DNA of 64,000 nucleotides from an uncultured Verrucomicrobiae bacterium (GTDB lineage Bacteria > Verrucomicrobiota > Verrucomicrobiia > Chthoniobacterales > JAATET01): the NCBI GenBank assembly GCA_963719495.1, contig CAVRCI010000009.1, positions 128,001 through 192,000 of the forward strand. Direction: 5' to 3'. The notes under the pieces were generated by a model that saw only the letters and a list, made by a program, of their open reading frames with translations, was not told where the DNA came from and made no database searches. Shown in pieces: positions 41,885 to 60,137 of this stretch. Numbering within the stretch: the stretch's first letter is position 1; the number at the start of each line of letters is the position of its first letter. Position numbers and translations under genes: made by a program.

Positions 41885-42076
41885 TCCTTTTTTGGAAAAT
41901 TTCATGCCGTTTTTACCGGAAGGCGGTTGGCAATGTTCGACGAAGCCGCGGAGGCGGTGCCGAGACCGGGCGGAGCATTTCAACGAGATGGCCCTCCCGA
42001 GAGCTGGCCGAACCCGATTCGTTTGCGGCGGAATTGACGACACACCCCGGCTCGTGAGACTTTGCGCGGCTCGCGC

Positions 42077-44593
42077 ATGGGAGGCAAAAAGAACAAGTCC
42101 AAACAGCGGCAGCAGCAGCGACGGAAGGAAATCCTCGCCGCGTCGCCCGACGACCTTGCGCTCAAAGCGGAGGACGAGATGGAGGTGGGGCGGTATCGTC
42201 AGGCCCGCGACCTGCTCAAGCCGCTCGCCAAGGCCGACCCGGGCCGCTTCCTCGCCCTGCTCGTCCAGGCCAACCTCGCGCTGGCGCGGCAAATGATCGA
42301 CCGCGGTCAGGCCAGCGAGGCCGAGCAGGTCCTCGCTTACGTCCGGACGCTCGCGCCCAAGAGCGGCGTCTCGCCCACCATCGACCTGGAACTCGCCCTC
42401 TCTAAAAAAGACTGGCCCGCCGTTGCCAGCAGCGCCGCCGCGATCCTCGCCAGCGCCGCGCCCGACGGGAGCACCCGCGCCGCCGACGCGCTCGTCGCCG
42501 CCGGTGAGCGGCTGCCCGACGAAGCCGCCACGCCCGCCCTCCGCGCCGCGCTGCACGGCATCCTCGAGGCGTTCGACGCGGTGGCCGACTCGCGGTTCGA
42601 CGACGCGCGGGACGCGATCCGCCCCATCGAGCGGGCGAGCGTCTTCGCGCCGTGGAAGGTGCTTCTCCGCGGGATGATTGCCCTGCACACCGGCGACGCG
42701 GCGGCCGCCCGGCGGTTCTTCGAGACGTCCCTCGACGGTGCGCCCGCTCGCGCGGCCCGCGCGTTCCTGCCGTTCTGCGGCGGCACACTCCCGCCCGGCG
42801 ACGCGCTGCCCTCGGCCCTTGGGACCGCCGTGGCCCGCGTCGCGAATCTTGGCCCGGCCACGCCCGCCCTCGTCCTCGCGGAGACCGCCTGGCGCTCCGG
42901 CCAACCCGCCGCCGCCTACCGGGCGCTCTGCGACGGCATTGCCAACTTCCCTTCCGCCGCGCCGGGCGTGAACGGGGAACTGACCCAATTCTTCCTCGCC
43001 GTCCCGCGGATGCTCGACTGGAAGGCCGCCAACGCGTTCGTCGATGTCTTCGACCGGATTCTCGTCTCGAACCGTGCCAGGAACCGCGCCGAGGAGCGCC
43101 TCGCCTGCCGCATCGTCGTCGCCCCCATCGCCCAAGACGGTCGCGACGACGCGCTCCTCCGCAGCCTTTGGGAGCGATTTGTCCGGCTGCACGCCCTCGA
43201 CTTCGGCCCGGACCCGCGGCTCGCCTCCGCCGTGGATACGCACCTCGGCAGAAAATTTGCGGCCCCCAATCCCTGGGGCTTCAACTCGGGACAACCCCAC
43301 CACCCCCGCTGGGCCGACGAACTCCTCACCCGCGCCGTCGAACGCGATCCCGACAATCTCGACGCCTGCCTCGCCCTCCTCGACCTCCGCGAACTCGAGG
43401 GCAACGCGAGTGCCCGCAATCATCTCCTCGACGACATGGCGGACCGATTCCCCGACGACAAGCGGGTGCTGCGCCGAGCCGGCCTCCTCGCTCTCGAGCG
43501 CAAAGCCTACACCAAAGGCACCGGCTACCTCGAGCGCCTCCGCGCCATCGACCCGAACGACGCGACGACCTTGCGACCGCTGATTGTCGGCTATTTCATG
43601 ATGGCCCTCGACCACTTCGGAAAAAACAAGCCCGCGCGCGCTCGTGAGCTTTTCGCTGTCGTCCGCCGCCTCGCCCTGCCGCCCAACAGCGGCGACGTCC
43701 TTTGCTCGCTCGAGTTCGTCGTCGCCAAACAGGCCAACGTCGAATCCATCGAAGGCGATCCCGCCATCGCACTCGCCAACCGGGAAGAAGCGCTCGCTCT
43801 CGCCCGGTTTGAGTCGCCCCTCGCACTCTACTTTGCGCTCTGCGGCGGAGAGGAAAAAACCGTGCAGCTCTGGCGCGACCGTTTCACCGCCGCCACACGA
43901 CAAGCCGTCTCCGGCGCGGAACTCCTCGAGGTCGTGCGCGCCCTCATCCACGTCGATGGTCTCCGCTCCAACGTGGACATCGATTGGGCCATCGAAGCGG
44001 TCACCCGACTTGCCTCCCACACCCGGAAACATCCGATCTCCCGCGAGTCCGCGGTCGCCATCGTCGAACTCCTCCACGCCGCGGACGACTTCGACGACAT
44101 CCTCGATGCCATCACGGATGGACGGCTCGCCGCGGATCCTGGTGACCCGTATTTCGGGTTCGAGCGGTTCGTCGCGGCGGGTCGCTTCGAAGACAGCCCG
44201 ACGGAAGCACCTTTTGACCAGCTCGAGAGCTTGGCCGACGAAGCCCGCCGCCGCAACGACCGCGCCGCCCTCGACGCCATCGGTCCCATCCTCGCCCAAG
44301 CGCGGTCTCGCTCCCCGCGCACCCGCTCCAGCGGCCCGACTTTCACACCGCTGGACATCGACGAGATGGACGATGACGACGATGACGATGAAGAATCGGA
44401 CCCCAAGATGGATCACTTCCGCCAGGAGATCGCCGCCATGTCCGACGCCGAGTTTCGCCGTTTCCGCAAGCGCATCGGGCGGAAAATCGACCCCCTCATT
44501 CTCGACGAACTCCGCGCCGCCTCCCGCGAACCCGATCCACCGAAGCCCGGGCACCTGAACCTCTCGGCCCAACTCGACCTTTTCCCAGAATGA
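42077..44593 (+). CDS. Large helical/TPR-like protein with a basic N-terminus, acidic tract and C-terminal QLDLF
   Basis: Ala/Leu-rich helical repeats (RAVERDPDN, RAIDPND), DDDDDDDEE tract, ends AQLDLFPE. Confidence 0.75.
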   Translation: MGGKKNKSKQRQQQRRKEILAASPDDLALKAEDEMEVGRYRQARDLLKPLAKADPGRFLALLVQANLALARQMIDRGQASEAEQVLAYVRTLAPKSGVSPTIDLELALSKKDWPAVASSAAAILASAAPDGSTRAADALVAAGERLPDEAATPALRAALHGILEAFDAVADSRFDDARDAIRPIERASVFAPWKVLLRGMIALHTGDAAAARRFFETSLDGAPARAARAFLPFCGGTLPPGDALPSALGTAVARVANLGPATPALVLAETAWRSGQPAAAYRALCDGIANFPSAAPGVNGELTQFFLAVPRMLDWKAANAFVDVFDRILVSNRARNRAEERLACRIVVAPIAQDGRDDALLRSLWERFVRLHALDFGPDPRLASAVDTHLGRKFAAPNPWGFNSGQPHHPRWADELLTRAVERDPDNLDACLALLDLRELEGNASARNHLLDDMADRFPDDKRVLRRAGLLALERKAYTKGTGYLERLRAIDPNDATTLRPLIVGYFMMALDHFGKNKPARARELFAVVRRLALPPNSGDVLCSLEFVVAKQANVESIEGDPAIALANREEALALARFESPLALYFALCGGEEKTVQLWRDRFTAATRQAVSGAELLEVVRALIHVDGLRSNVDIDWAIEAVTRLASHTRKHPISRESAVAIVELLHAADDFDDILDAITDGRLAADPGDPYFGFERFVAAGRFEDSPTEAPFDQLESLADEARRRNDRAALDAIGPILAQARSRSPRTRSSGPTFTPLDIDEMDDDDDDDEESDPKMDHFRQEIAAMSDAEFRRFRKRIGRKIDPLILDELRAASREPDPPKPGHLNLSAQLDLFPE

Positions 44594-44895
44594 ACCCCTT
44601 TACCACCCTCGGAGTCGCCCCCACCGCCGACGACCGCGCCATCCGCGACGCCTACCTCGTCGGCATCCGCGCCTCGCCGCCCGACACCGACCCCACCCGG
44701 TTCCGCGCCATCTCCGACGCCTACGAACTCGTCAAAACCGCGCCAGCCCGCATCCGCTACCAGCTCTTCGACGAGACGTCCCCCGGCGACAGTCCGCTCG
44801 ACGTCGTCGTCCGCCACGCCGTCGGGCGCGGCGCACCCAAGCCCATGAACCGCGACACCCAGCGCGCCTTCCTGCGCGATTGTCTCGAATCATGA
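44590..44895 (+). CDS. Small J-domain protein (HPD replaced by PPD)
   Basis: MNPFTTLGVAPTADDRAIRDAYL...SPPDTDPTRFRAISDAYE; ATGA overlap with the upstream gene. Confidence 0.8.
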   Translation: MNPFTTLGVAPTADDRAIRDAYLVGIRASPPDTDPTRFRAISDAYELVKTAPARIRYQLFDETSPGDSPLDVVVRHAVGRGAPKPMNRDTQRAFLRDCLES

Positions 44896-45602
44896 ATCCC
44901 GACCCGGCCGACTGGAAGGAACGCGCCTTCGACGACTTCGCCCGCTGGCTGCACGCCGCCGACGCGACGCCGCCGACCGCGGCCCCCGACGCCGAAGCCG
45001 ACGCCCCCGACCTCCACTCCCTCCTCGCCGAGCTCACCGCCCTCCGCCACGAAGCCCGCACCGGCAACCGCCGCGCCGCGGAATCCGCCGGTCAGACCAC
45101 CGCCGCCCTCCAGCGTTGCGAAGCAACCCTCACCGGGCTCCTCGCCTTCCACGCATCCACCACCACCGATCGCCCACCCTCGCGCGCTCACTGCCTCGCT
45201 CTCGTCGAACTCCACGACCGGCTCGCCCGCGTCGCCGCCGCCCTCGACCGCCCGCCCTCACCCCCCGCCTCACCCCCCGCCTCACCCCCCCGCCGCGGCT
45301 GGCTCGGTACCCCCACCCCACCCCCGCCCACCGACGCCTGGGCCGCCGCGTGGGAAAGCGTCCGGCAGGGCCTCGGCATCGTCCAGCGCCACACCGAAGC
45401 CGTGCTCACCAGCGCCGGAGTCCTGCCGATTCCCACCCGCAGCCTCCCCTTCGACCCCCTGCGAATGGTCGCCATCGCCACCGAGCCGCACCCTCACCTC
45501 CCGACCCACCACGTCACCGACGAACTCGCCCCCGGCTACGAATTCCAGGGCGAAATCCTCCGCGCCGCCGAAGTCAAAGTCTGCGCCCCGCCCGCGCCAT
45601 AA
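44892..45602 (+). CDS. GrpE-like nucleotide exchange factor
   Basis: LVELHDRL, GV.PI....PFDP..M.AI, VTDELAPGY...GEILRAAEVKV. Confidence 0.8.
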   Translation: MNPDPADWKERAFDDFARWLHAADATPPTAAPDAEADAPDLHSLLAELTALRHEARTGNRRAAESAGQTTAALQRCEATLTGLLAFHASTTTDRPPSRAHCLALVELHDRLARVAAALDRPPSPPASPPASPPRRGWLGTPTPPPPTDAWAAAWESVRQGLGIVQRHTEAVLTSAGVLPIPTRSLPFDPLRMVAIATEPHPHLPTHHVTDELAPGYEFQGEILRAAEVKVCAPPAP

Positions 45603-45642
45603 CTCCCAACTCCCAACTCGCAACTCGCAACTCGCAACTCGC
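45601..45642. repeat. Heptamer tandem repeat (AACTCSC)x6 directly before the Hsp70 ATG
   Basis: AACTCCC x2 + AACTCGC x4. Confidence 0.9.
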
Positions 45643-47370
45643 ATGAAAGACCCCATCGTCGGCATCGACCTCGGCACCACGAACTCCGCCATCGCCTCGC
45701 TCCAGGACGGCGTCCCCCGCGTTATCGACATCGACGGCGCCCCCTCCCTCCCCTCCTGCGTCGGCATCGATCCCACCGGCCAGCTCCTCGTCGGTCGCCC
45801 CGCTCGCAATCAACTCGTCGCCGCCCCCGACTCCACCGTCACCTCCATCAAGCGCCTCATGGGCCGCGACACCACCGTCACGCTCGGCGACCGCACGTTC
45901 ACGCCCGAGGAAATCTCCGCCCTCATCCTCCGCGAGCTCAAGCTCCGGGCCGAAGCCGCCCTCGGCCACCCCGTCACCCGCGCCGTCATCACCGTCCCCG
46001 CCTTCTTCGACGAGAATCAGCGCAAGGCCACGCAAAACGCCGGCACCCTCGCCGGCCTCGAAGTCGTCCGCATCATCAACGAACCCACCGCCGCCGCCCT
46101 CGCCTACGAAGCCGGTGAGCGCGGCGACGAACGCATCCTCGTCTACGACCTCGGCGGCGGCACCTTCGACGTCTCCGCCGTCGTCGTCGAAGGCGGCGTC
46201 GTCGAGGTCAAAGCCAGCCACGGCGACACGCAGCTCGGCGGCGACGACTTCGACGCCCTCCTCGTCGGCCACGTCGCCGCGCGCTTCGAGGCGGAGCACG
46301 GCATCGATCTCACCGCCGATCCCGCCACCGCCCGCCGCCTCCAGGTCGCCCTCGAGCGCGCCAAATGCCGACTCTCCGACGAACCCTTCACCACCGTCCG
46401 CGAAGAATTCGTCCACGGCGACCTCCACCTCGAACTCGAAATCGACCGCACCACCTACGAAGAACTCATCACCCCGCTCTTGGAAAAAACCCTCGCCTGC
46501 GTCCAGCGCGCGCTCGAAGACGCCGCGATCCCCGCGTCCAAACTCGACAAAGTCATGCTCGTCGGCGGCTCCACCCGCACGCCCCTCGTCCACCAGATCC
46601 TCCGCCAGCGCCTCCGCATCGAACCCCGCCACGAGATCGACCCCGACCTCATCGTCGCCCTCGGAGCCGCCATTCAGGGCGGAGCCAGTGCCGGAGAAAA
46701 ATCCCGCGCCATCCTCGTCGACATCACGCCCCACAGTTTCGGCACCGACGCCGTGGACACCGGCGGCTGGTCCGCCGACACCTACTACGTCCCCGTCATC
46801 CACCGCAACACCCCCCTGCCCGCCAGCAAGTCCGAGGTCTTCAACACCATCCACGACAACCAGGACACCGTCCGCGTCAAAGCCTTCCAAGGCGAAAGCG
46901 ACGTCCCCGACAACAACCTATTTCTCGGCGAATTCCTCATCGAAGGCCTCAGTCCCGTCCCGCGAGGGAATCCCATCGTCACGCAATTCGACCTCGACCT
47001 CGACGGCCTGCTCCGCGTCACCGCCACCGAGAAAGCCACCGGCCTGCGCGCCAGCGTCACGCTCGACACCCGCGGCACCTGCGACACCCTCGACCTCGAC
47101 GCCGCCGCCGCCAACCTCCGCGCCACCACCGGCGACGCCCCACCCGCCCCCGCCGACGCCACCACCCTCGACCCCACCCTCCTTGCCACCACCCGCGATC
47201 TCGAGAAACGCGCCCGCGCCCTCCTCGCCAGCGGCATCGACCCCGAAGACGCCACCGAGATCGGCCTGCTCCTCGACCAATGCGCCACCGCCGAGCGGGA
47301 CGCCGACGCCCCCACGCTGATCGAAAAATCCGAAATCCTCGCCGACCTCGTCTATTACCTTGAAGACTGA
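45643..47370 (+). CDS. Hsp70/DnaK-family chaperone (specialised paralog)
   Basis: GIDLGTTNS, TVPAFF, IINEPTAAALAY, YDLGGGTFDVS, LVGGSTRTP, linker ILVDITPHSFG; 575 aa. Confidence 0.93.
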   Translation: MKDPIVGIDLGTTNSAIASLQDGVPRVIDIDGAPSLPSCVGIDPTGQLLVGRPARNQLVAAPDSTVTSIKRLMGRDTTVTLGDRTFTPEEISALILRELKLRAEAALGHPVTRAVITVPAFFDENQRKATQNAGTLAGLEVVRIINEPTAAALAYEAGERGDERILVYDLGGGTFDVSAVVVEGGVVEVKASHGDTQLGGDDFDALLVGHVAARFEAEHGIDLTADPATARRLQVALERAKCRLSDEPFTTVREEFVHGDLHLELEIDRTTYEELITPLLEKTLACVQRALEDAAIPASKLDKVMLVGGSTRTPLVHQILRQRLRIEPRHEIDPDLIVALGAAIQGGASAGEKSRAILVDITPHSFGTDAVDTGGWSADTYYVPVIHRNTPLPASKSEVFNTIHDNQDTVRVKAFQGESDVPDNNLFLGEFLIEGLSPVPRGNPIVTQFDLDLDGLLRVTATEKATGLRASVTLDTRGTCDTLDLDAAAANLRATTGDAPPAPADATTLDPTLLATTRDLEKRARALLASGIDPEDATEIGLLLDQCATAERDADAPTLIEKSEILADLVYYLED

Positions 47371-47854
47371 GCCACCCGGCCCGCCGGCCGCCCCGTCGGC
47401 GCTCACCTGCCCCGCCTGCGGCAAGTCGAACGCCCCCGCCGCCCCCGCCTGCCGACGCTGCGGCTGCGATTTCACACTCCTCAACCGCGCCACCACCGCC
47501 GCCACCGCGCACCTCCTCCGGGCAGAAAACCACCTCCGCGCCGGCCGCCCCCGCCCCGGCCTCGCCGCCGCCACGACCGCCTGGACGATCCGGCACACCC
47601 CCAAAGCCGCCCGCCTCGCCTTCGTCGCCAGCGTCCTCCTCCGCGAGCACCCCACCGCCCTCCGCTGGCACGCCCGAGCCACCAGCAACGAACCCGCCCA
47701 ACCACCCACCGGCCAATTCGCAAAACGCCCCACCCCGGGCCGGGCACCCCACCCCCACGGACGCCGAATCCTCGTCGCCGCCACCCTCACCGCCGCCGCC
47801 CTCGCCACCCTCGCCCACTACCGCCGCCACGCAGCCGCGCTCGAGGATGCGTGA
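47360..47854 (+). CDS. Zn-ribbon + TPR-like small protein with a C-terminal hydrophobic segment
   Basis: CPACG...CRRCGCD, then helices and ILVAATLTAAALATLA; overlaps the Hsp70 stop. Confidence 0.6.
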   Translation: MKTEPPGPPAAPSALTCPACGKSNAPAAPACRRCGCDFTLLNRATTAATAHLLRAENHLRAGRPRPGLAAATTAWTIRHTPKAARLAFVASVLLREHPTALRWHARATSNEPAQPPTGQFAKRPTPGRAPHPHGRRILVAATLTAAALATLAHYRRHAAALEDA

Positions 47855-48435: not shown

Positions 48436-49329
48436 TCATCCCTTCGTTCCGTAAAAACACGGGCAGCAGCCAAATTCCTTCGCGAAGGCTTTGCTGAAGT
48501 GACTCAGGCTCGAGTAGCCGACCGCCATCGCCGCTTCCGTCACATTTCCTCTGCCGCCGCGCAGGAGTTCGGCGGCGCGTTCGAGCCGCGCTCCCCGGAG
48601 GAATTGCGAAATGGTCAGCCCGGTCTCGTCACGAAAGATCCGGCTGAGATGGAACGGGCTGCAACCAACCAGCTTGCCAAGTTCCGCGAGTGTCGGCGGG
48701 TGCTCGAGATCGGCGGTCAGCAATCCACGCGTCCGGACGACGCGCGCGCTCGCGATCCGCTGCGTCCGTCGGCAGAAGAACTCCTCTTCCGGCTCGAAAA
48801 GACCGAGCGCCGCGACCTCGAGAATTTTTCCGTGGTGCCAGCAGGACCACGCACCCGGGATACCCGGAGGATCGAGGAGATCACGCGCCACACCGACGAG
48901 CGCTTCGGACATCGCGGAGACGCACGCATCGTCTCCCCCCGGGCTTCCCGGCTCGAGAAACTCCAGCACCGGTCGCCGCACCGCCAGAGTGCCCGAGGGC
49001 AGCCACCGCGCAACCCAACTCTTCCGGAACTCGACCGCGACAAACTGGTGCCGCCCGTCTCCGTTTCGGTCGAGCATCGGATGGCCCGACCGCGCGAAGG
49101 CCAGGCTCACGTGCCCGGGCTCGATCTTTGGTGCCTCCGACTCGATCCCGGTCGCCGCCCGCCCCGCCAGGTTCAAGCAGACCAGGAGGGACAGCTCGTC
49201 GAAGAGGTGGCGCCCTTCCCCTTGATCCGCCCGGTCCCACCGCGTGATCCGGAAACCGTCCGCGTCCAGATCACCGAAACCTCCCGCTCGATCACCAATC
49301 GCCTTCGTTGATTCGCTCCCGGCCACCAT
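48436..49329 (-). CDS. AraC-family (PchR-like) regulator
   Basis: PPTLAELGKLVGCSPFHLSRIF, NVTEAAMAVGYSSLSHFSKAF; ATG at 49329 preceded by AAGGGAG. Confidence 0.9.
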   Translation of the reverse strand: MVAGSESTKAIGDRAGGFGDLDADGFRITRWDRADQGEGRHLFDELSLLVCLNLAGRAATGIESEAPKIEPGHVSLAFARSGHPMLDRNGDGRHQFVAVEFRKSWVARWLPSGTLAVRRPVLEFLEPGSPGGDDACVSAMSEALVGVARDLLDPPGIPGAWSCWHHGKILEVAALGLFEPEEEFFCRRTQRIASARVVRTRGLLTADLEHPPTLAELGKLVGCSPFHLSRIFRDETGLTISQFLRGARLERAAELLRGGRGNVTEAAMAVGYSSLSHFSKAFAKEFGCCPCFYGTKG

Positions 49330-49342
49330 CACTCCCTTAATA

Positions 49343-49363
49343 TGCGATTGAGTCTCATTTGCA
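49343..49363. promoter_or_regulatory. Fur-box-like palindrome upstream of the AraC gene
   Basis: TGCGATTGAGTCTCATTTGCA, an AT-rich imperfect palindrome in a GC-rich background. Confidence 0.6.
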
Positions 49364-49364
49364 A

Positions 49365-50150
49365 TCACTTAGCGGTGGTCGGCGTGGATTGGACCTCGAA
49401 AAAGTTCGAATCGCCGCCGACGCGGGCGACGGGAATCCCGTAGGCCGCGCTCAACCATTCGCCGACGAGCACCGCGCCCGCGTCCCCGCTGGCCAGCACC
49501 CGGCCCCACGACATGAGGCAGACCTTCGTCGCGTAGGTCGCGCAGAGGTGCAGATCGTGCAGCACGACGACGACGCACCCGCCGTCGCGCGCGAAATCCC
49601 GCGCGAGTCGGAGCACGGAGTGCTGGTGCTTCAGATCCAAGCTCGAAGTCGGTTCGTCGAGCAACAGGTAGCGGCCCTCGGTCTCCCCATCGAGCTGCGT
49701 GAGCGCGCGGGCGACGTGGACGCGCTGACGCTCCCCGCCGGACAGCGTCAGGTAATCCCGGTCCGCAAATCCAACCAATCCCACGGATTCCAAAGCCCGG
49801 ATCGCCGCCCGCGCGTCGGCGCTCGTCTCGCGCCCCGTCCACCGCGGAGCGCGGCCCTGCAGGACGACGTCGATGACCGCGAACGGAAAGTTCAGCGCGC
49901 TCGATTGCGTGACCACAGCCCGCCGCCGGGCGAGGTCCCGCCCGTCCCAATCCGGCAGCGGCCGCCCGCCGACCTCGACCGATCCCGAGTCCGGCGCGAT
50001 CTCGCCCGCCAGCACCCGCAGCAAGGTTGATTTACCCGCCCCGTTTGCGCCGAGGATGGCGGTCACCTCGCCCGGTCGCGCGCGGAAGTCGACGTCGCCA
50101 AGGATCAGTCGTCCTTTCCGCTCCAAATTCAAACCACGCGCCCGGATCAT
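49365..50150 (-). CDS. hmuV: Heme ABC transporter ATPase
   Basis: GANGAGKSTLL, LSGGERQRVHVARAL.QL, YLLLDEPTSSLD, VVLHDL. Confidence 0.9.
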   Translation of the reverse strand: MIRARGLNLERKGRLILGDVDFRARPGEVTAILGANGAGKSTLLRVLAGEIAPDSGSVEVGGRPLPDWDGRDLARRRAVVTQSSALNFPFAVIDVVLQGRAPRWTGRETSADARAAIRALESVGLVGFADRDYLTLSGGERQRVHVARALTQLDGETEGRYLLLDEPTSSLDLKHQHSVLRLARDFARDGGCVVVVLHDLHLCATYATKVCLMSWGRVLASGDAGAVLVGEWLSAAYGIPVARVGGDSNFFEVQSTPTTAK

Positions 50151-50271
50151 CTTCCGACCAATCTGTAGCGGCGGTCTGTGACCGCCGGTGCCTTCGCGAT
50201 CAAGGCGCGCCCCATTTTCGTGGAAATCCGGCGGTCACAGACCGCCGCTACATTGGGTTGGGTGCGACCGT

Positions 50272-51372
50272 TCACGACTGCCAGGCTCCCTTGTTGCGCA
50301 GGAGCAGCCAGAGGAAAAACGGCGCGCCGATGATCGCCGTCAGGATGCCGATGGGGAGTTCCGCCGGGGCCGCGACCGTTCGCGCCACGATGTCGGCTCC
50401 GACGAGCAGACTCGCGCCGAGCAACGCCGCGCCCGGCAGCAGAAACCGGTGATCCGGGCCCGCGACCAACCGGACGACGTGCGGCACGACCAACCCGACG
50501 AACCCGATCGCCCCCGACATCGCCACCGCCGCCCCGACCCCGACCGCGGTCAGCACGATCACCGCCCACTTGGCCCGCTTCACGTCGAAGCCGACGTGAC
50601 GGGCTTCCGCCTCGCCGAGCAGCAGCGCGTTGAGCGCCCGCGACCAGATCGGCAGCAGCCCGAGCGTGAGCGCCACGCACGGCAGCGCGAGTCCAACCTT
50701 CCCCCAAGTCGCACCGCCGAGGCTACCAAGACTCCAGAAGGTCACGTCGCGCAACTGATCGTCGGTCGCGAGAAAAACGAGAAAACCCGTGAGCGCCATC
50801 GCCAAAGCCGCAACCGCCACGCCCGCCAACAACATCGTTGCCACGATCACCCGGCCATCGTGCATCGAGAGCAGATAAATCGTCGTCATCGTAACCAGCG
50901 CCCCGACGAACGCCGCCAGCGGCAGCAGCAATGGTCCGAGGATCGCCGGCAAAAGAGCGCGCACCGGATCGCCGAGTACGATCACCGCGACCGCCGCCAA
51001 GGCCGCGCCCGCCGAGACGCCGATGATCCCCGGATCGGCCAAAGGATTGCGGAAAAGTCCCTGCATCGCCGCGCCCGACATCCCAAGCACCGCACCGATC
51101 AAGGCCCCCAGCAAGATACGCGGCAGCCGAATCTGCTCCACCACCGCGCGCACCGTCGGCGAGATCTCCGTCGCGCCCGTCACCCGGCCGGCAACGACCT
51201 CGGCCAGATCGCTCAGCGTCACCGCCATCGGACCCGTCACCAGAGCCGTCGCGATCACGGCGACGAGCAGGCCGACGAGCGCGCCCCATTGCCAGGTCCG
51301 CCGCCGGGTGCGCCGCCGCCAATTCTCGAAAGCCCGATCGGCGGCGTCGACCTCGAGCGCTACCGTCGTCAC
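50272..51372 (-). CDS. hmuU: Heme ABC transporter permease (FecCD family)
   Basis: IRLPR, MQGLFRNPLADPGIIGVS.GA, FWSLGSLG, GEAEARHVG, ELPIGILT. Confidence 0.92.
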   Translation of the reverse strand: MTTVALEVDAADRAFENWRRRTRRRTWQWGALVGLLVAVIATALVTGPMAVTLSDLAEVVAGRVTGATEISPTVRAVVEQIRLPRILLGALIGAVLGMSGAAMQGLFRNPLADPGIIGVSAGAALAAVAVIVLGDPVRALLPAILGPLLLPLAAFVGALVTMTTIYLLSMHDGRVIVATMLLAGVAVAALAMALTGFLVFLATDDQLRDVTFWSLGSLGGATWGKVGLALPCVALTLGLLPIWSRALNALLLGEAEARHVGFDVKRAKWAVIVLTAVGVGAAVAMSGAIGFVGLVVPHVVRLVAGPDHRFLLPGAALLGASLLVGADIVARTVAAPAELPIGILTAIIGAPFFLWLLLRNKGAWQS

Positions 51373-52190
51373 TTCCGAGCCGCCTGCGCCAATTCCAAGG
51401 CGGCTTGGGCCGCGCGCGGTCCCATTCCCAGCAGATACAGATCGTCCATGACGACCACGTTGCCGTCCACGACCGCCGGCGTGCCCGCGAGCGCCGGCAG
51501 GGCTTTCAATTTCTCGAGCCCTCCCAGACCGCCGACCGTGCGCTCGCCGGTGACGACCACGCGAGGCCCGAGCGCGAGGAGCGATTCCGGCGAGACGGGT
51601 TTGTAGCCCTCGTAACTCGAGATGACATTTTCCAAGCCCGCCGCCTCCAGCATCACGTCGGCCGCCGTGTCGGTCCCAGCGGCGAGCAGGACTCCGTCGC
51701 CGCGGCCCATGAGATAGACCGCCTTCAGATTCTCGCCGCCCTTGGTGACGGATCGAGTCCGCTCGACTTCGAATTCGAAGTTTTTCGCCAATTCAGCACC
51801 GGCTTCGGCCAAACCAAGAGCGCCCGCGACGCCGCGGATTTTCTCGGTGATTCCGGCAAGACTCGACTCGTCTGGAGCGACGTAAATTTCCACCCCGGTC
51901 GCGCGCAGTTGCTCCATCACGTTCGGAGGCCCCGCGGCATCCGACGCCAGGATGAGATCCGGCTCGAGCGCCAGCACGCCCTCCGCCGAGAGCGCCCGCA
52001 CGTAGCCGACGTTCGGCAGCTCGCCCGCCGCTTCCGGATACGAGCTCGTCGAGTCCACCGCAACCAGCTTCCCGCCCTCTCCAAGAGCATAGACGATCTC
52101 GGTGATTTCTCCGCCGAGGCTCACGATCCGCTCGGCGGCCTGCGCCGAAGCAGCGCCGACGATCAAAGTTGCCAGAACAATGGTTCTCAC
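51369..52190 (-). CDS. hmuT: Heme ABC transporter periplasmic binding protein
   Basis: RIVSLGGEITEIVYALG, VDSTS.YP, VGYVRALSAEGVLAL; GTG overlaps the hemS stop. Confidence 0.9.
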   Translation of the reverse strand: MRTIVLATLIVGAASAQAAERIVSLGGEITEIVYALGEGGKLVAVDSTSSYPEAAGELPNVGYVRALSAEGVLALEPDLILASDAAGPPNVMEQLRATGVEIYVAPDESSLAGITEKIRGVAGALGLAEAGAELAKNFEFEVERTRSVTKGGENLKAVYLMGRGDGVLLAAGTDTAADVMLEAAGLENVISSYEGYKPVSPESLLALGPRVVVTGERTVGGLGGLEKLKALPALAGTPAVVDGNVVVMDDLYLLGMGPRAAQAALELAQAARK

Positions 52191-53230
52191 GAGAGACCCT
52201 CCGCGAGTTCGCGCCAGCCACCGTCCTCGACCTCGCCCGGCTTCCGTTTGCCAAAGATCAGCGCGATATTCCCGCCGTCGGCATCGTAAAGCTCCACCGC
52301 CGTCACGACGCCGTCGCGCGTCGGCTTCCGCACGCGCCACGCCGAGGCCACTCCGGAATCCCGGAGGTGGAGATTGAACTCCGGATCCAGCACGTTGGTC
52401 CAATCCTTGAAGGGCTGGATGTTCGACACCGTCCCGGTGTGAATCTGGAGACAGCCCCGGTTGCCGACGAAGACCATGATTGGAAGCTCGCTTGCCGCCG
52501 CGGCGCGCAGGATCGTGCCGGTCACGTCCGTCGGGAGCGGCTCGGCAAATTCCTCGCCCACGAGGCGCAACGCCTGCACCCGACCGACACTGAATTTTTT
52601 CAGTAAGCTGAAAAATTCGTGCGTGTCCTGCAATCCGCGCCAAGCCTCGCGCAACCCTTCGAGGTCGATCTCGCCGTCCGGCCGGTCGACCTCCGCTTCC
52701 GGCGACGGCTCGGCGTCGAACGTCGGCGACTGGTCATCGGCCTTGCGATCGGCGATCAACGCGTCGAACGCCGCGCGGTCGCTGTCATCCTCGAGGAAGA
52801 CCTTGTGCATCGCGGAGCCATCCGAGCCGAAAATCTGAATGCTGTCGTTCGCACCGGTCGCGTCGTCTTTGCGGACCGCGAAGGCCGTCGTCCACTGACG
52901 CGGAAAGAGCCGCAGGTCGATGTCCGGACCCACAACCTGCCCCATCGCCCCACCGGCGAAGAAACCAATCTCGCGAAAATGCCCGTTGCGCTCGTGCACG
53001 GCGTGCTCGTTCCGCGTGAGACACATGACGTAACCAAGCGTTTTGCAGGCGTCGAGCAGCTCATCCCACTCGGGCTCGAGCCGCGTGACGTGTTCGCCGC
53101 ATCCGGTCGCGAGGAGGGCGGCTTCGCTGGTGCCCAGGCGGGCGGCGACGTCGCGGATGCGGAGCCGGGGTTCGGCGGCACGGAGCGCCGACCATTTTTC
53201 GGAGAGTTCGTTTTCGATGGTTGGGTTCAT
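52187..53230 (-). CDS. hemS: Hemin degradation/storage protein (HemS/HmuS/ChuS family)
   Basis: RIRDVA..LG.SEA.L, LTRNEHAVHE, IDLRLF, DTHEFF, IMVFVGNRGCLQIHTG, FNLHLR. Confidence 0.93.
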   Translation of the reverse strand: MNPTIENELSEKWSALRAAEPRLRIRDVAARLGTSEAALLATGCGEHVTRLEPEWDELLDACKTLGYVMCLTRNEHAVHERNGHFREIGFFAGGAMGQVVGPDIDLRLFPRQWTTAFAVRKDDATGANDSIQIFGSDGSAMHKVFLEDDSDRAAFDALIADRKADDQSPTFDAEPSPEAEVDRPDGEIDLEGLREAWRGLQDTHEFFSLLKKFSVGRVQALRLVGEEFAEPLPTDVTGTILRAAAASELPIMVFVGNRGCLQIHTGTVSNIQPFKDWTNVLDPEFNLHLRDSGVASAWRVRKPTRDGVVTAVELYDADGGNIALIFGKRKPGEVEDGGWRELAEGLS

Positions 53231-53235
53231 GAGAT

Positions 53236-54045
53236 CTATTGAGCGGTGATGGTGAAGTTTGGGTTGTCCGCGTCGGCGGCCTGGATCGACCAGCGGCGCA
53301 TGTCCTGGAGCTGATCTTCGTCGAGGAGTTCGGTGTGACCGTCGAGCATCACGGTGACGGCGCGCTTTCCGTAGCGAAGGTCGATGAACCCGAACGCGGC
53401 GGCGGATTGCTCCTCCTCCCAGGTATTCGCCCAGCGGCGGCTGCTGAAAAACGGCGACTGGACCCGGTAATTCCCGATCTTCCCCGGCTCGCTCCGGGCC
53501 GAGGCGAAGACGATCAGCTTGGACGGATTGGAGACCTGCACCATCCGGGTCGCGCAGAAATTACCGACAACATCGAGAGCCCTCGGGATCGGCTTGAGGT
53601 CGCTGCCGTTGCCGAAGTCTCCGCCGACGAACGTGACGTTCATCCCGAGATTCGGCGAGATGCTGGCCGCGTAGTAGGAGTCGGTCGTTTCGCTCCGCAC
53701 GTCGTTTCCGGTCAGGATGAGCGCGCTCTCGTCGTATTCCACGTAGGGAGCGAGGCGCCACGGGTAGCGGGCACTGGCCGGCCAGTGAATGAGATTGCCC
53801 GCGGCATCCCGCGCGTCGGTGCCCGCGGGTGCGTAGCCTGCCATGAGGTGGCCGTCGTTCTCAGCCGCGTGGAGTTGATACCCAACGATCAGTTTGCGCC
53901 CCGCGGAAATCTCCTGCGCCTTGAGCCCTTCGTTCTGCAGCCGCCCGACGACCGGCACGGTCACCACGGCCAGCACGGCGAGGATCGCGGTCACAGCAAG
54001 GACCTCGATCAGCGTGAAGGCTCGGTCTCGATCAAATCCGCGCAC
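53236..54045 (-). CDS. Prepilin-type N-methylation protein of the PVC H-X9-DG (DUF1559-like) class
   Basis: RAFTLIEVLAVTAILAVLAVV; C-terminal DLRYGKRAVTVMLDGH. Confidence 0.85.
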   Translation of the reverse strand: MRGFDRDRAFTLIEVLAVTAILAVLAVVTVPVVGRLQNEGLKAQEISAGRKLIVGYQLHAAENDGHLMAGYAPAGTDARDAAGNLIHWPASARYPWRLAPYVEYDESALILTGNDVRSETTDSYYAASISPNLGMNVTFVGGDFGNGSDLKPIPRALDVVGNFCATRMVQVSNPSKLIVFASARSEPGKIGNYRVQSPFFSSRRWANTWEEEQSAAAFGFIDLRYGKRAVTVMLDGHTELLDEDQLQDMRRWSIQAADADNPNFTITAQ

Positions 54046-54952
54046 GTCGCCACCTCCCCAAGAGAAACAGCCCCGCCAGGCCAACCAGAGCGATCACCGA
54101 GGGCTCCGGCACGGCCGTGAGGTCGCCCGAAAGACGTCCCGCCAATCCGAGCGAGCGATCGTTCTGATGAAAGAAATCGTCCTTCGTGTAGAACGACGGA
54201 AATCCCGACCCCGCCATCTGGCTCGTCGCCGAGATCCCGGTCACCATCAGGTCCAGCGAACCCGCGTTCAACGCGTCCTGGACGTAGGCCAGGATGAACG
54301 GATCGCTCAGCTCGAGATCGAACGTCATCACCGAGTCGATCGGCACCAAGCTCCCCGGCGTCACCATCGAGATCTGACCGATCGCCCAAGGGCTGACCTC
54401 GAACCCATCGCGGACGTTGTTGGAAACATCCCCGAGCGTCCCGGCTCCGTCGAATCCGGCCGCGAACGCGTCCCGCGTCCGCTCGGCCCCCGTCCCCGAG
54501 CCGGTGGTGAACGGAGACGATTCGTTGAAGGTCGCCGCCGTCGTGCCATTTCGATACCCGGTGCCGAAGAGCTCGATCGGCCGACCCGAGTCGGCGTCCG
54601 TCATCGGATCGAGGTAAGTCCCCAACGCGTCCCGCGTCGGGTCGTAGACGAATTGGTTGTCGACGTTCACCGTGATCGCCAGCCGCAGCGAAGAGACGCC
54701 GTAATTGGACGCGCCCAACCCGGCGGCCGCGATGCCCGTGGTATCGAACCGCAGGAAATACTGCGCGTCCCGGTCGTCGAAGCCGGACTCGCCAGCGGCT
54801 CCGAAGACCGACGCCCCGGAGCGAGTGCCGGGCGTTTGGTTGAACGGATACATCCACCGGTCGCCGGCGGGTTCGTCGATTTGAAAAGGCGCCGCCCACG
54901 CCGCGCCACCGCAGAGGGTGAGGGTCAGGATCGCCGGAAGACGGAATTTCAT
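54032..54952 (-). CDS. PEP-CTERM surface protein
   Basis: Signal peptide; C-terminal VPEPSVIALVGLAGLFLLGRWRR. Confidence 0.9.
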   Translation of the reverse strand: MKFRLPAILTLTLCGGAAWAAPFQIDEPAGDRWMYPFNQTPGTRSGASVFGAAGESGFDDRDAQYFLRFDTTGIAAAGLGASNYGVSSLRLAITVNVDNQFVYDPTRDALGTYLDPMTDADSGRPIELFGTGYRNGTTAATFNESSPFTTGSGTGAERTRDAFAAGFDGAGTLGDVSNNVRDGFEVSPWAIGQISMVTPGSLVPIDSVMTFDLELSDPFILAYVQDALNAGSLDLMVTGISATSQMAGSGFPSFYTKDDFFHQNDRSLGLAGRLSGDLTAVPEPSVIALVGLAGLFLLGRWRRARI

Positions 54953-54982
54953 GGCGGCGAAGGTAGCTGCCTCTCCGCCGCG

Positions 54983-55082
54983 CCGCTAACGGTGGCTTGC
55001 GAAGCTTTGACGCTTCCTTGCGGTCCGAGATCGACCCGCCAGCGCAAGGCGACGCTAACCTTCCGCAAGCGTCCGTTAGCGG
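54983..55082. repeat. About 100-bp imperfect inverted repeat between the divergent PEP-CTERM genes
   Basis: CCGCTAACGG..GCTTGCGAAG...CCTTGCG...CGCAAGG...CTTCCGCAAGC..CCGTTAGCGG. Confidence 0.75.
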
Positions 55083-55115
55083 GATTCCCGGGACTTCGGC
55101 AGACTCCGCCGCATC

Positions 55116-55856
55116 ATGTTCAAAAGCCGACCCGTCGCCATCGCCATCAGTCTTCTCGCCGTGACCACCGCCGCCCACGCAACACCGCTCGGGCTCAGTT
55201 CCGACCCGATGGGCGATGCCTGGGACCGCGGCGACGCCAACACCGCATTCGGCACTTGGGATCATTTCGCGAGCTACACGTTCTCCAACCTCGCCGCTGA
55301 CTCAGCCAGCGGATTCGCCAGCCTCGGGCTCGACCAGTCGACCACCCTCACCGGGAACCCGGGCAGCGACCAGGGAGCAGGCACCTACGATTCGTTCGCC
55401 GGTTTTAGCGGCTCCCCGGGCACCGACCTCCTCTACAACGGCAACCGCAACACCAACTTCTCCGTCGACGGCACCACCGCGTTCGCCATCAAAGGCTTTA
55501 CGCTCCAGGTCAAACAAACGCTCAGCCAAGCGTCGCTCGGTGGATCGGTGACTCCGACGCTGAACGGGATCGCCGCTGATGGCTTCACGACGACGTCCGG
55601 CACCGGCGACACCACCAGTCCCGGCGGGGACTACAGCGTGACGACCTGGAATTGGGGTGATTCGCTCGCCGCGACCTCGAGCACAACGTTCACTTTGGCA
55701 ATCACGCCAACCAGCACCCGGACCGCCTTCGACAGCATCGTCGTCGACGCCGGCCCGGTCGCCGCCGTCCCCGAGCCCGGTGTCGTCGCGCTTCTGGCGC
55801 TGGGCGCTCTCGCTCTGCTGGTGAGCCGGCGGTTTCGACGCCAGACAACGGTCTGA
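55116..55856 (+). CDS. PEP-CTERM surface protein
   Basis: Signal peptide ending AHA; C-terminal VPEPGVVALLALGALALLVSRRFRR. Confidence 0.9.
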   Translation: MFKSRPVAIAISLLAVTTAAHATPLGLSSDPMGDAWDRGDANTAFGTWDHFASYTFSNLAADSASGFASLGLDQSTTLTGNPGSDQGAGTYDSFAGFSGSPGTDLLYNGNRNTNFSVDGTTAFAIKGFTLQVKQTLSQASLGGSVTPTLNGIAADGFTTTSGTGDTTSPGGDYSVTTWNWGDSLAATSSTTFTLAITPTSTRTAFDSIVVDAGPVAAVPEPGVVALLALGALALLVSRRFRRQTTV

Positions 55857-55858
55857 GT

Positions 55859-55970
55859 TCAGCCGACCCGATTCCCGACGTAGATCCCGGCCCCGTCCCG
55901 ATTCTCGGCGCGGGCCGGCGCGCCGCCGACAACCCCGTCATTCTCCACGTCCGACGCCACGACGGAATGC
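55859..55970 (-). pseudogene. 3' fragment of a serine-acetyltransferase-like gene (homolog of 59547..60137)
   Basis: AHSVVASDVENDGVVGGAPARAENRDGAGIYVGNRVG* versus AHAVVTADVENDAVVGGAPARVLNRDGAGVYVGNRVG*. Confidence 0.8.
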
Positions 55971-56185: not shown

Positions 56186-57397
56186 GTGATGAAAACCCAA
56201 CCAAAAAGCCTACCGACGGAATCGAGCTTCATTGGCATCGATTATCACAAGCGATACAGCGTCTATTGCGTGGTTGATGGCCACGGCGAGGTGCTCGGCC
56301 AAGGGCGCATCGAGCACGCGATCAGCGGAGATTTTGGGCGGCTCGTCGAGCGGTGGCCGGGGTGCCGGATCGTCTTCGAAGCGAGCATGAACTGGCACTG
56401 GCTCTACGAGATTCTCGAGCAGGTGATGCCCGCCGAGAACATCGTGTTGGCCAACCCGTTTAAGACGCGGATCATCGCCGAGGCCCAAATCAAGACCGAT
56501 AAGATCGACGCCCGAGCGTTGGCCAATCTGTTGCGGGCCAATTTGATTTCGAGCGTCCACATCCCCAGTCGCGAGACCCGCGACATCAAGAACGTGCTGC
56601 GCCAGCGCTGTTTCTTCGTGCGCCAACGCACGATGCTGCGCAACCGCATCCACCGGTTACTTGGTGGGCAGCACGAACTTAAACTTCCTGTCTGCAGCGA
56701 CCTCTTCGGCAAGAAGGGACTGAGTTTTCTGGAGAAGCTCGAGTTGCCCGAACCAGCAGGCATGCTCCTGACCCAGCAACTCGCCCTCCACAACGAGTTG
56801 GTCGCTCGCATCCGCCAAGACGAGGCAGCGCTCAAAGATCTCATGAGCCAAAGCCCCGAGCTCACCCACGTCTGCAGTCTCCCCGGGATGGGACCCATCC
56901 TCGCCGCGGTTGTCGTCGCCGAGATCGACGACATCTCGCGCTTTGCCTCCGCGCAGAAGCTCTGCGGCTACGCGGGACTCTGCCCGGCGACGAGCAGCAG
57001 CGGCGGTAAGACCTACCACGGACGCCTGCTGCCCCAGTGCAACAAGTGGCTGCGTTGGGCCTTCGTCGAGGCCGCCTGGGTAGCCGTTGGCTGCTCGCCC
57101 TACTTCGGCGACTACTACAAAAACAAACGCGCTCACGGCAAGAAAGCCAACACCGCCATTCTGGCCACCGCCCGCCGGATGGCCCGAATCACCTGGAGCC
57201 TCTTGACCCAGGGGCGTTCCTACACGAACTTTCCTGAATCCCAAAAGCTCCGAAGCCAGCGCCGTGACGCGGACGGGCAAACGCCTTCCCGATCCGGCCT
57301 GGCCAAGGAAAAAATTGAAGACATGAAAACCCCGAAAACACGCCAGGGACGCAAACGTCGATCTTCTCGAAAACAATTTCCCCAGCCGCTCCAATGA
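56186..57397 (+). CDS. IS110-family DEDD recombinase/transposase
   Basis: GIDYHK (D), VFEAS (E), KTDKIDA (DD), SLPGMG, YAGLCP..SSSGG (catalytic Ser region), LRWAFVEAA. Confidence 0.95.
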   Translation: MMKTQPKSLPTESSFIGIDYHKRYSVYCVVDGHGEVLGQGRIEHAISGDFGRLVERWPGCRIVFEASMNWHWLYEILEQVMPAENIVLANPFKTRIIAEAQIKTDKIDARALANLLRANLISSVHIPSRETRDIKNVLRQRCFFVRQRTMLRNRIHRLLGGQHELKLPVCSDLFGKKGLSFLEKLELPEPAGMLLTQQLALHNELVARIRQDEAALKDLMSQSPELTHVCSLPGMGPILAAVVVAEIDDISRFASAQKLCGYAGLCPATSSSGGKTYHGRLLPQCNKWLRWAFVEAAWVAVGCSPYFGDYYKNKRAHGKKANTAILATARRMARITWSLLTQGRSYTNFPESQKLRSQRRDADGQTPSRSGLAKEKIEDMKTPKTRQGRKRRSSRKQFPQPLQ

Positions 57398-57940: not shown

Positions 57941-59436
57941 CTACCGCCGGAGGATCCGAATTTTCGCCCGCTTCGATTTCAACCCGATGCCGTCGACGGC
58001 GCGGACCTTCACGACCACGCGACCCTGATCTTTCGTGATCCGTAGGACGACCTTGAAAGTGCCGTTGCCCTTCACCTTCGCTTTGGCGACCTTGCCGCCG
58101 CGAGCCTTCACGTCCAGATCGGCGACCCCGGAGGCGTCGCGGGCGGTCCCGCGGATCACGACCCGCTTGCGCAGCGTCTCGATGGTCTTTCGACCGCGAA
58201 CCTTGAGTTCCGGGCGAGTGACGTCGACGGGCGGCACGGCGACCGGATCGGCGGGTCGGGTGAATCGGAGGACACGTCGATTGCTGAGATCCGCCACCCA
58301 CAAGTTCCCGGCCGGACTCAGGAAAAGACCGTAGGGAAAATCCAACCGATCCGCGGCGACATGCGCATCAACGGCAAAGAATGACGACTGCCCGACGACC
58401 CCGTCCGCGAGTGGTTGATTATCCGCCGAAGCCACGTTGTCGTAGCGCAGGACGCGGTTGTTCCCGCTGTCCGACACCCACAATGACCCGAAGGAATCCT
58501 TGGCGACATCGCGGGGTCCACTCAATCCGACGCTGCCACCACCGGTGCTCGAAGTATCGAAGTCCGGCTGGCCGATGACCAGATCAGCGTCAGGACCATT
58601 TCCACGACTGGCAGCATTGTCGTAGGCCGTCACGCGGTTGTTGGCACTGTCCGCCCCACCCACAACCGACTGGAGGTATCGAGCATGACGCCAACCGGCT
58701 GCGCCAATCGGTCGATTCCCAACGGAAGAAATGTGCTTCCGCTACTGATGAAGTCGTCCTGCCCGATCACTTGCGTCGCCGCGGCTCCGTCCGCCAAGGC
58801 TGCCGCATTGGCGAAACGGAGAACGCGGTTGTTGATCCGGTCGGAAACCCAGAGATCCCCGCCCCCGTCGATCCAGAGGCCCGACGGGGCGGTAAACTCG
58901 CTCGCCGAGAGACCCGATGCCCCGGAAGTGAAGTTAATTTGACCGAGCACGAGATTCGCCGCGGCGTCGCTGCCCAACGCCGACGCGTTGGTCCACATGA
59001 GAATTCGGTTGTTACCAGAATCCGCTACCCACAGCCGACCCGCTGAGTCGACCTGGACGCTGATGGGGAAACTCAGTCCGCGAGAGGTCGGATTGGACTC
59101 TCCACCGTTCACGGAGACGTCGGAAAAGTCATCCTGCCCAAACACGACCTCTGCGGCGGCACCGTTGCCGAGTGCGTCCTCGGGAGGATACCGCAGCACG
59201 CGATTCCCGGAGGAGTCCACCACAAAAACCTTCCCGGTGGTTGGATCGATCGCGATGCCGTTTGGTTGGACAAAATTTGAGTCGGAGGTCGTCGCGGCGG
59301 CGTTGGTGTTGAAATCCGATTGCCCCAACACCAAATCCGCGCTCGCGGAAGTCGAGATCTGGGCGGTTAGGCTAGCAGCGAAAATCAGCAGGACGCTCGC
59401 GCCTAAGGCAGAAATTTTACGGAAAGACAATTGCAT
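57941..59436 (-). pseudogene. Secreted NHL-repeat beta-propeller protein with a basic Ig-like C-terminal domain; frameshift near 58654-58657
   Basis: Repeats LWV.D..NNRVL...A..V.GQ.DF run across ORFs 58630..59526 and 57941..58663; TGG GTG GG GCG GAC carries 2 extra G relative to W-V-A-D. Confidence 0.8.
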
Positions 59437-59546
59437 ATCCGAACCATTACACGCATTGGTCAGGGTGTCCCCCGCCAATTTGTCGGCGTCACCAGTTGCC
59501 GATCTTTCAGGGCGCACTGCGAACAATCCGAAGGGCCCGCCGCAAT

Positions 59547-60137
59547 TCAGCCCACGCGATTCCCGACGTAGACCCCGGCCCCGTCCCGATTCAGGACGCG
59601 GGCCGGCGCGCCGCCGACGACCGCGTCATTTTCGACGTCCGCCGTCACCACCGCGTGCGCCGCGACCAGCACGTTTCGTCCGACGACGACGCGCCCGAAG
59701 ACACAAGCATAGGACCCGAGGTAGACGTGGTCGCCGATCGTGGGCGCGCCCATTCGATCGCCGCGGAAGACGCCGCCGATCGTCGCGTGATTCACCACCG
59801 TGCAATTCCGCCCGATCGTCGCGCCCTTATTCACGGTCAAGCTCCCGGCGTGCAGGATGATGAACCCCGGCCCGATGCGCACCGACTGCGGGATCTCGAT
59901 CGCCCGGCGCGAGCTCGCCCACGCGAAGACCAGGTCGCTGACCGCCCCGATCACCCGCCAGCCGTTGAAAAAATCGCGACACCGCATCAGCACAATCACG
60001 TGAAAGCACGCCGACGTGAACGTGATCCGCAGAAATTCCTCCCAGTCCGTCCGACCCCGGTGCCGATACAAGTCGGCGCGGATGATCTCGGTCAGCGGTT
60101 CAAAATTCGGGACGTCGATTTTCATGAGGATCGGCAT
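59547..60137 (-). CDS. Serine acetyltransferase-like hexapeptide-repeat (LbH) protein
   Basis: IGPGFIILH, TIGRNCTV...TIGG, PTIGDHVYLG, VVGGAPAR. Confidence 0.85.
   Translation of the reverse strand: MPILMKIDVPNFEPLTEIIRADLYRHRGRTDWEEFLRITFTSACFHVIVLMRCRDFFNGWRVIGAVSDLVFAWASSRRAIEIPQSVRIGPGFIILHAGSLTVNKGATIGRNCTVVNHATIGGVFRGDRMGAPTIGDHVYLGSYACVFGRVVVGRNVLVAAHAVVTADVENDAVVGGAPARVLNRDGAGVYVGNRVG

Follow-up and report, generated by a model that had tools for sequence, protein, structure and literature searches.

In the heme-uptake operon of an uncultured Verrucomicrobiae bacterium of the order Chthoniobacterales, a module made of a type IV prepilin-like protein (the pilin) and PEP-CTERM proteins stands in the place of the heme receptor, and this replacement is real, phylum-wide and regulated. 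The operon lies in a stretch of 64,000 nucleotides, called the window here (assembly GCA_963719495.1, contig CAVRCI010000009.1, positions 128,001 to 192,000), and all positions below are those of the window. We consider it probable that the pilin/PEP-CTERM pair captures heme at the cell surface and that a retractile type IV pilus then brings the heme in through its secretin, to the periplasmic protein HmuT. In Gram-negative bacteria, heme uptake across the outer membrane is described, in the available part of the source, as proceeding via TonB-dependent receptors (TBDRs) with one exception, a leak through mutant PilQ via PilT (PMC6449446).

The operon and its divergent neighbour comprise the following features:
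55116-55856, plus strand: PEPb, divergent PEP-CTERM protein with a predicted jelly-roll beta-sandwich; TIGR02595 over cut-off
55043..55080, plus strand: 38-bp operator copy 2, facing PEPb; score 39.1
54985..55022, minus strand: 38-bp direct-repeat operator copy 1, GCAA-n6-CGnnAA with a 21-bp period, facing PEPa-pilin-hemSTUV-araC; score 39.8
54952-54032, minus strand: PEPa, PEP-CTERM protein, first gene of the operon; TIGR02595 over cut-off
54057-54052, minus strand: Shine-Dalgarno sequence GGAGGT of the pilin, within the PEPa tail, read from the sequence
54045-53236, minus strand: prepilin; GTG start overlapping the PEPa stop, leader MRGFDRDRA/FTLIE with cleavage after A
53230-52187, minus strand: hemS, HemS/ChuS heme-handling protein; PF05171, two domains, 259.8 bits
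52190-51369, minus strand: hmuT, periplasmic heme-binding protein; signal peptide without Cys, supported by sequence matches in the Protein Data Bank (PDB)
51372-50272, minus strand: hmuU, FecCD permease; PF01032, 300.8 bits
50164..50253, no strand: REP-like palindrome with inverted arms, between hmuU and hmuV
50150-49365, minus strand: hmuV, heme ABC transporter ATPase; NF010068, 283 bits against a cut-off of 261
49368-48436, minus strand: araC, AraC-family regulator, last gene of the operon; PF12833/PF00165

All eight genes that a preliminary description of this DNA had reported at 48436..55856, namely a co-oriented run of PEP-CTERM, prepilin, hemS, hmuTUV and araC genes plus a divergent PEP-CTERM gene, were confirmed, and the minus-strand genes from PEPa to araC mostly overlap or sit a few bases apart. 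To judge from the sequence, PEPa and the pilin are probably translationally coupled. The inner-membrane half of the operon is an ordinary, standard Hmu locus, with a heme-type binding protein, a FecCD permease and heme ABC ATPase, and a HemS/ChuS protein. The top seven PDB sequence matches of HmuT are all heme-type binding proteins (E 1e-55 to 1e-36; a B12-binding protein is found at 9e-22), the Tyr of its 'VGYVR' aligns with that of 'VGYMR' in Yersinia HmuT, and it is the sole PF01497 protein found in the genome. A B12 system was rejected, given that HmuT and HmuV are of the heme type and that no Rfam match reached the gathering score in nine pilin loci, with none relevant in the window. The 16-mer of the palindrome arm has 32 copies genome-wide, so it is a general repeat and not particular to the heme system.

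The TonB-dependent heme receptor expected of an Hmu/Hem system was found neither in the locus nor in the genome, which measures 4.54 Mb in 16 contigs and is 98.6% complete and 2.8% contaminated. The preliminary description had noted that the window holds no TBDR and had called for a whole-genome search for HmuR-like receptors; the absence turns out to extend to the entire genome, where PF00593, PF07715 and PF14905 gave 0 matches each, a custom hidden Markov model (HMM) built from 61 TBDRs out of the fetched loci and run unfiltered on all six-frame open reading frames (ORFs) reached a best E of only 0.48, and tblastn for TBDRs returned nothing. With all four profile searches empty, a receptor hidden elsewhere in the genome was rejected. 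The window is also free of TonB and ExbBD, as had been stated, but the genome elsewhere has 15 ExbD/TolR and 2 TonB_C/TolA-like matches; the TonB_C gene that was inspected follows tolQ/tolR-like genes and is TolA-like by inspection. Additionally, the genome encodes secretins, PilB/GspE ATPases, PilT (3 over cut-off) and 2 exosortases (PF09721).

The distribution of pilins and receptors beside hemS was surveyed in a 401-genome sample of the phylum and a 301-genome sample of the order, taking the neighbourhoods of all strong HemS matches, excluding weak HemS-like matches from the locus count and scoring neighbours within 6 kb; 55 non-verrucomicrobial hemS loci served as controls. Among 60 hemS loci in 57 verrucomicrobial genomes, 44 had the pilin without a TBDR, 7 had a TBDR without the pilin, 1 had both, and 8 had neither; of these last eight, 4 stop at a contig edge and the other 4 belong to genomes that carry the pilin elsewhere. 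The control loci had a TBDR in 44 cases and the pilin in 0. Six of the seven receptors from TBDR-type loci were tested and all six matched a heme/hemoglobin model best (3 over cut-off), and for three TBDRs checked from pilin-type relatives in the family of the window genome the best match was a siderophore model. In the order sample, a strong pilin match was found in 39/44 HemS genomes, the five others being 3 genomes of TBDR type, 1 fragmented genome with partial matches and 1 genome that is only 82% complete. No PF00593 match was present in 17/44 order HemS genomes (lists compared by hand), and of these 16 have the full pilin and 1 has fragments of it. Thus, the conservation beside hemS that the preliminary description had asked about holds across Verrucomicrobiota, where the pilin and the TBDR are nearly mutually exclusive. 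The closest HemS relatives carry the labels Chthoniobacterales or Spartobacteria.

The pilin itself has a type III signal with Glu at +5 and is over cut-off for PF07963 and TIGR02532. A profile was built from 42 homologues found beside hemS; E6 is invariant in these sequences, as are R85, Y117, G126, N128, V132-G134, D240-M241-R242 and W244, with residue 1 being the Ala that precedes the cleavage site. Near its C-terminus the pilin of the window has an R-Y-x9-D-G-H motif (Y217-x9-D227-G228). The profile retrieves one gene at 3e-97 in the genome, while the other pilins match mostly via the N-terminal helix alone. BLAST with the window pilin placed its homologues next to hemS in most verrucomicrobial loci, even where they are inverted or relocated. 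The family is therefore not a generic pilin present here by chance: it occurs in single copy, differs from the remaining pilins of this genome, and relocates together with the heme genes. The predicted fold is that of a pilin: the model has a mean predicted local distance difference test (pLDDT) of 92.8, with a helix at 4-54 and a globular beta head, and in a fold search the best match, Thermus PilA4, was modest (Z 5.4, root-mean-square deviation 3.2, 117 residues aligned), with pilins or pseudopilins in all of the top 22 rows; Foldseek found nothing at E 0.001.

One alternative is that the pilin never enters a filament: its N-terminal helix would keep it in the inner membrane, where, together with the PEP-CTERM proteins, it would bind heme leaking in across the outer membrane and pass it to HmuT. 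Both kinds of protein are indeed anchored in the inner membrane before processing. Nevertheless, HmuT already has the periplasmic role, such a relay would leave the either/or pattern with an outer-membrane receptor unexplained, and the invariant prepilin cleavage motif with its E at +5, along with the pilin-like fold of the model, points to filament assembly. We regard this alternative as quite improbable.

PEPa and PEPb both have a signal peptide, a C-terminal PEP motif, a transmembrane helix and a basic tail, and neither has a match in Pfam or NCBIfam beyond the PEP-CTERM models. They show no homology to each other: PEPb falls in a PEPb/PEPc family, to which PEPa is unrelated, and the partner of the pilin varies among at least three families (PEPa, PEPb/PEPc, and a protein of ~780 residues). 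Among the loci fetched, all 25 PEPa homologues are in pilin-bearing loci, and members of the PEPb/PEPc family are found next to loci of the TBDR type as well (G386, G104). The pilin and PEPa are predicted to bind each other. The complex prediction scored 0.87 in three runs, with the best control at 0.00 and heme itself unscored, its contacts agreed to at least 84% and the pLDDT of the partner was at least 87; the mark used for this score was reached by 116/157 solved pairs and 2/215 mismatched pairs, a calibration that is only rough here, as own alignments were used with a ligand riding along. The predicted interface includes the invariant Y117 of the pilin. Moreover, in-frame fusions of PEP-CTERM proteins to the pilin occur elsewhere, five of them among the best 150 of 921 pilin-family representatives (PEPa domain in 3, PEPc in 1, another domain in 1) plus G402; those joining PEPa to the pilin are G402, P0002, P0004 and P0028. 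At the fusion junction, the basic tail of the PEP-CTERM protein continues into the prepilin cleavage site. The PEP-CTERM motif is almost always C-terminal, according to the available part of the original account (PMC1569441). That PEPa and the pilin of the window are joined by a programmed frameshift was rejected: the pilin has its own Shine-Dalgarno sequence and GTG start, and the stop-to-cleavage distances of relatives fall in all three frames.

Binding and fusion of the two partners would equally suit an escort, in which the pilin acts as a substrate-specific pseudopilin that uses a type II secretion channel to bring its PEP-CTERM partner outward; once at the surface, the partner would concentrate heme or strip hemoproteins of it, and heme would enter by diffusion or a general pore. 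For PEP-CTERM proteins, transport to or across the outer membrane has been proposed in the part of the source consulted (PMC1569441), and of the 46 pilin-like genes of the genome, 12 have a PEP-CTERM gene no more than 1.5 kb away, where random placement gave 2.1 on average and 8 at most. We judge this export role unlikely. It requires a second, inward route, and no conserved channel gene was found in 60 pilin-type loci or in the regulon: all-against-all clustering of these loci showed nothing conserved beyond the pilin, the PEP families, hemS or heme oxygenase, hmuTUV and araC. Furthermore, the pilin family stays the same across loci whose partners are of three unrelated kinds, which suggests that the pilin is tied to the substrate and not to the cargo.

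The 163-bp gap between PEPa and PEPb contains two oppositely oriented direct repeats with a 21-bp period, and an operator matrix trained on relatives alone, which covers 88 sites in 42/99 loci, recovered two strong sites genome-wide, with scores of 39.8 and 39.1 and the next best at 18.3; the 55 non-verrucomicrobial control loci gave two weak matches only. Because the two strong sites of the genome face PEPa and PEPb, PEPb is likely co-regulated with the operon. No further regulon gene is apparent, there being no other strong operator site in the genome, and a co-regulated heme TBDR elsewhere, which would have spoken against the preliminary description, was not found. The layout resembles that of XylS-type AraC sites, and the AraC protein of the operon likely binds the 38-bp operator. 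Homologues of araC adjoin most pilin-type and most TBDR-type heme loci, and in G594 the operator motif stands at the head of a heme TBDR gene. Neither a Fur box (sought by eye) nor a sigma-70 promoter was seen.

The pilin also stays with heme genes when the heme-degrading enzyme changes. Of 22 order genomes with the pilin and without HemS, 13 have PEP-pilin-heme oxygenase-hmuTUV, heme genes are missing near the pilin in 6, and the remaining 3 lay outside the inspection; in 13/13 inspected loci where heme oxygenase takes the place of HemS, the pilin and hmuTUV are retained. G099 has the order hugZ-hmuTUV-araC-pilin-PEP, with HugZ in place of HemS. As for the use of the imported heme, neither HemH nor HemE was found in the genome, and in the genomes of its family HemH occurs in 0/16 and HemE (URO-D) in 1/16. 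CbiX (15/16 of the family genomes) and AhbAB-like genes (13/16) are both present in this genome as well, while AhbD gave nothing over cut-off there. Heme is probably made by the siroheme route, and heme auxotrophy is unsupported, given the CbiX and AhbAB-like genes. Since the cell appears able to make heme in this way, imported heme most likely serves as an iron source.

A capture-and-retraction route through the pilus would work as follows. AraC would act on the two 38-bp operators, switching on PEPa-pilin-hemSTUV and PEPb; the pilin would be matured by a prepilin peptidase and the PEP-CTERM proteins cut by an exosortase. As a minor subunit whose globular head holds the docked PEP partner, the pilin would exit via a secretin, and heme would bind the pilin/PEP pair, the candidate ligand being Y117 of the pilin at the predicted interface. 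Retraction by PilT would return the loaded head to the periplasm, from where HmuT-HmuUV would move heme across the inner membrane, and HemS would handle or degrade it, most likely for iron.

Several observations weigh against this route. Regarding the survey, the genomes are related, so the locus counts are not independent; a quick HemS tree requires the TBDR label to change 5 times, and strong branches force only 2 of these changes; and in G098 the pilin coexists with a TBDR that is heme-like, though below cut-off, and lies 6.1 kb from hemS. The genome also holds several secretins as possible channels. At the predicted interface, positions are mostly variable across families, and only Y117 of the pilin and R22 of PEPa are strongly conserved. 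Conserved Tyr (60/62) and His (54/62) residues mark the PEPb/PEPc family, but PEPb of the window has Arg at the family His column, and PEPa has no conserved His, so the sequence lends no support to the PEP-CTERM hemophore of the preliminary description for either protein. The model of PEPb (pLDDT 82) is a common jelly roll resembling carbohydrate-binding modules, and no known hemophore, such as HasA, HmuY, NEAT or HtaA, was among the matches listed in its fold search, though PEPb may still be one.

The assignment of the pilin to the H-X9-DG/DUF1559 class of the Planctomycetes-Verrucomicrobia-Chlamydiae (PVC) bacteria, also made in the preliminary description, had to be dropped. The pilin shares with these proteins a short leader, the FTLIE motif and the C-terminal R-x-x9-D-G, but it matches neither PF07596 (DUF1559) nor TIGR04294 at E 0.05, whereas other pilins of the same genome do match PF07596; at the His position of the motif Tyr is commonest (23/42 pilins, with His in 7/42), and it forms a distinct single-copy family. 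Hence, the pilus-dependent, receptor-independent heme route suggested at the outset withstood the comparative tests (conservation, TBDR exclusion and no TBDR elsewhere), but the sequences do not support its hemophore label, the DUF1559 class was dropped, and the pilus-tip position given there to the pilin is conjectural.

Further points against a heme route concern the ligand. In 13 inspected genomes the pilin has no heme gene nearby, 12 of them also lacking HmuV over cut-off, and in 3 of these the pilin has an esterase and a Kelch/PQQ propeller as neighbours, a hint that the ligand may be a different one. The pilin/PEP pair might thus be an iron-regulated adhesin or sensor, or the binder of another iron chelate, that is co-regulated only, and the resemblance of PEPb to carbohydrate-binding modules and the CBM96 clusters among the Atlas neighbours of PEPa (a lead only) go in the same direction. 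In contrast, the pilin is tied to three unrelated heme-degrading enzymes, it nearly excludes heme TBDRs, and 17 HemS genomes lack any TBDR. A ligand or role other than heme is therefore, to our judgment, very improbable, and heme capture by the pilus remains the preferred reading.

Variants of the module were seen in the surveyed loci. L191, L192, L193, L195, L212 and L213 have a pilin without heme genes whose neighbour is a Kelch/PQQ beta-propeller protein; some of them also contain an esterase (PF00756), and such a module might serve another iron chelate. Several genomes of family f7 (L146:4875, L160:4829, L170:12055) have a second, divergent HemS-like gene with its own operator, upstream of the PEP-pilin genes, and L205 and L207 carry PEP-CTERM ORFs of ~1550 aa with a PEPc domain after the pilin and a protein of the 780-aa type, in second pilin loci.

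Around the operon, an IS110-family transposase gene directly follows PEPb (56186-57397, plus strand; NF033542 over cut-off). The 3' end of an acetyltransferase-like gene (59547-60137) is duplicated just downstream of PEPb, with 95/110 bases identical between 55856-55965 and 59544-59653, and the duplicated 110-base stretches bracket the IS110 gene and NHL-repeat ORFs, which suggests an insertion or duplication event. These two overlapping ORFs (57941-59526, minus strand; 298 and 240 aa, the second with a terminal Ig-like domain) look like one frameshift-split gene. Upstream of the operon, 42062-47854 (plus strand) encodes TPR-like (843 aa), J-domain-like, GrpE-like, Hsp70-like and zinc-ribbon proteins, labels that were given by eye except for the zinc ribbon.

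The heme locus may be one case of a wider arrangement. Nine other pilin loci that were inspected (L229-L237) contain mostly inner-membrane transporters, hydrolases and regulators for peptides or glycans, and one has SCO1 with cytochrome c; the cassettes of pilin, in part with PEP-CTERM protein, were found in peptide ABC, GH43/MFS, SSF/heparinase, GH115/UxaE, GH39/sulfatase, gamma-glutamyltransferase and SCO1/cytochrome c loci. We put forward, tentatively and with a confidence that stops somewhat short of even, that Verrucomicrobiota have a TonB-free mode of import in which substrate-specific minor pilins with docked, exosortase-sorted binders share a retractile pilus and bring nutrients in via the secretin, heme being the clearest case and the other cassettes working alike. 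If so, this TonB-free library of pilins would be a PVC counterpart of SusC/SusD. On the current view, large cofactors such as heme enter across the outer membrane of Gram-negative bacteria only with the help of TonB-dependent receptors; a dedicated pilin in the receptor's stead would add a second natural route. It would also give a role to two large orphan classes of PVC proteins, the prepilin-like and the PEP-CTERM proteins, and explain feeding in genomes with few or no TBDRs. Among substrates, heme lends itself best to testing the idea, and the operator and the predicted pilin-partner interface define specific mutations.

No description of a pilin/PEP-CTERM heme system was found in the literature covered, which largely left out subscription papers and supplements. 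Among the known systems closest to this one are competence pili, in which DNA-binding minor pilins such as ComP set substrate specificity and retraction draws the substrate through the secretin. ComP is among the fold matches of the heme-locus pilin at Z 3.9; competence pili carry DNA, whereas the cargo proposed here is a small cofactor, with a sorted partner protein. Within Verrucomicrobiota, Akkermansia has abundant PilQ and also PEP-CTERM proteins, as far as the available part of that report goes (PMC4960237), and a type IV-like pilus has been tied to glycan use in Akkermansiaceae (PMC13174399). Like the system proposed here, the Akkermansia MUL2 locus links verrucomicrobial pilus genes to nutrient uptake; it is, however, a core pilus locus read as serving glycan attachment, and the sections of the article at hand describe it without a substrate-specific pilin and PEP-CTERM cassette in a cofactor operon (PMC13174399). 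A point mutant of pilQ in Neisseria gonorrhoeae admits heme through the secretin via PilT (Chen et al. 2004, as cited in PMC6449446), so that heme passage through a type IV pilus secretin, only proposed here, has a precedent. That mutant, as presented in the accessible text, is a gain-of-leak without a dedicated subunit, whereas the present case involves a wild-type, dedicated and regulated pilin family that is conserved across the phylum. Finally, the HmuR/HemR-HmuSTUV loci share HemS, HmuT, HmuUV and the gene order with the operon described here, judging from the available part of the source (PMC6449446), and seven verrucomicrobial loci do have a TBDR next to hemS; unlike them, the operon of the window has its receptor slot filled by pilin and PEP-CTERM genes under the same operator, in a genome where no receptor was found.

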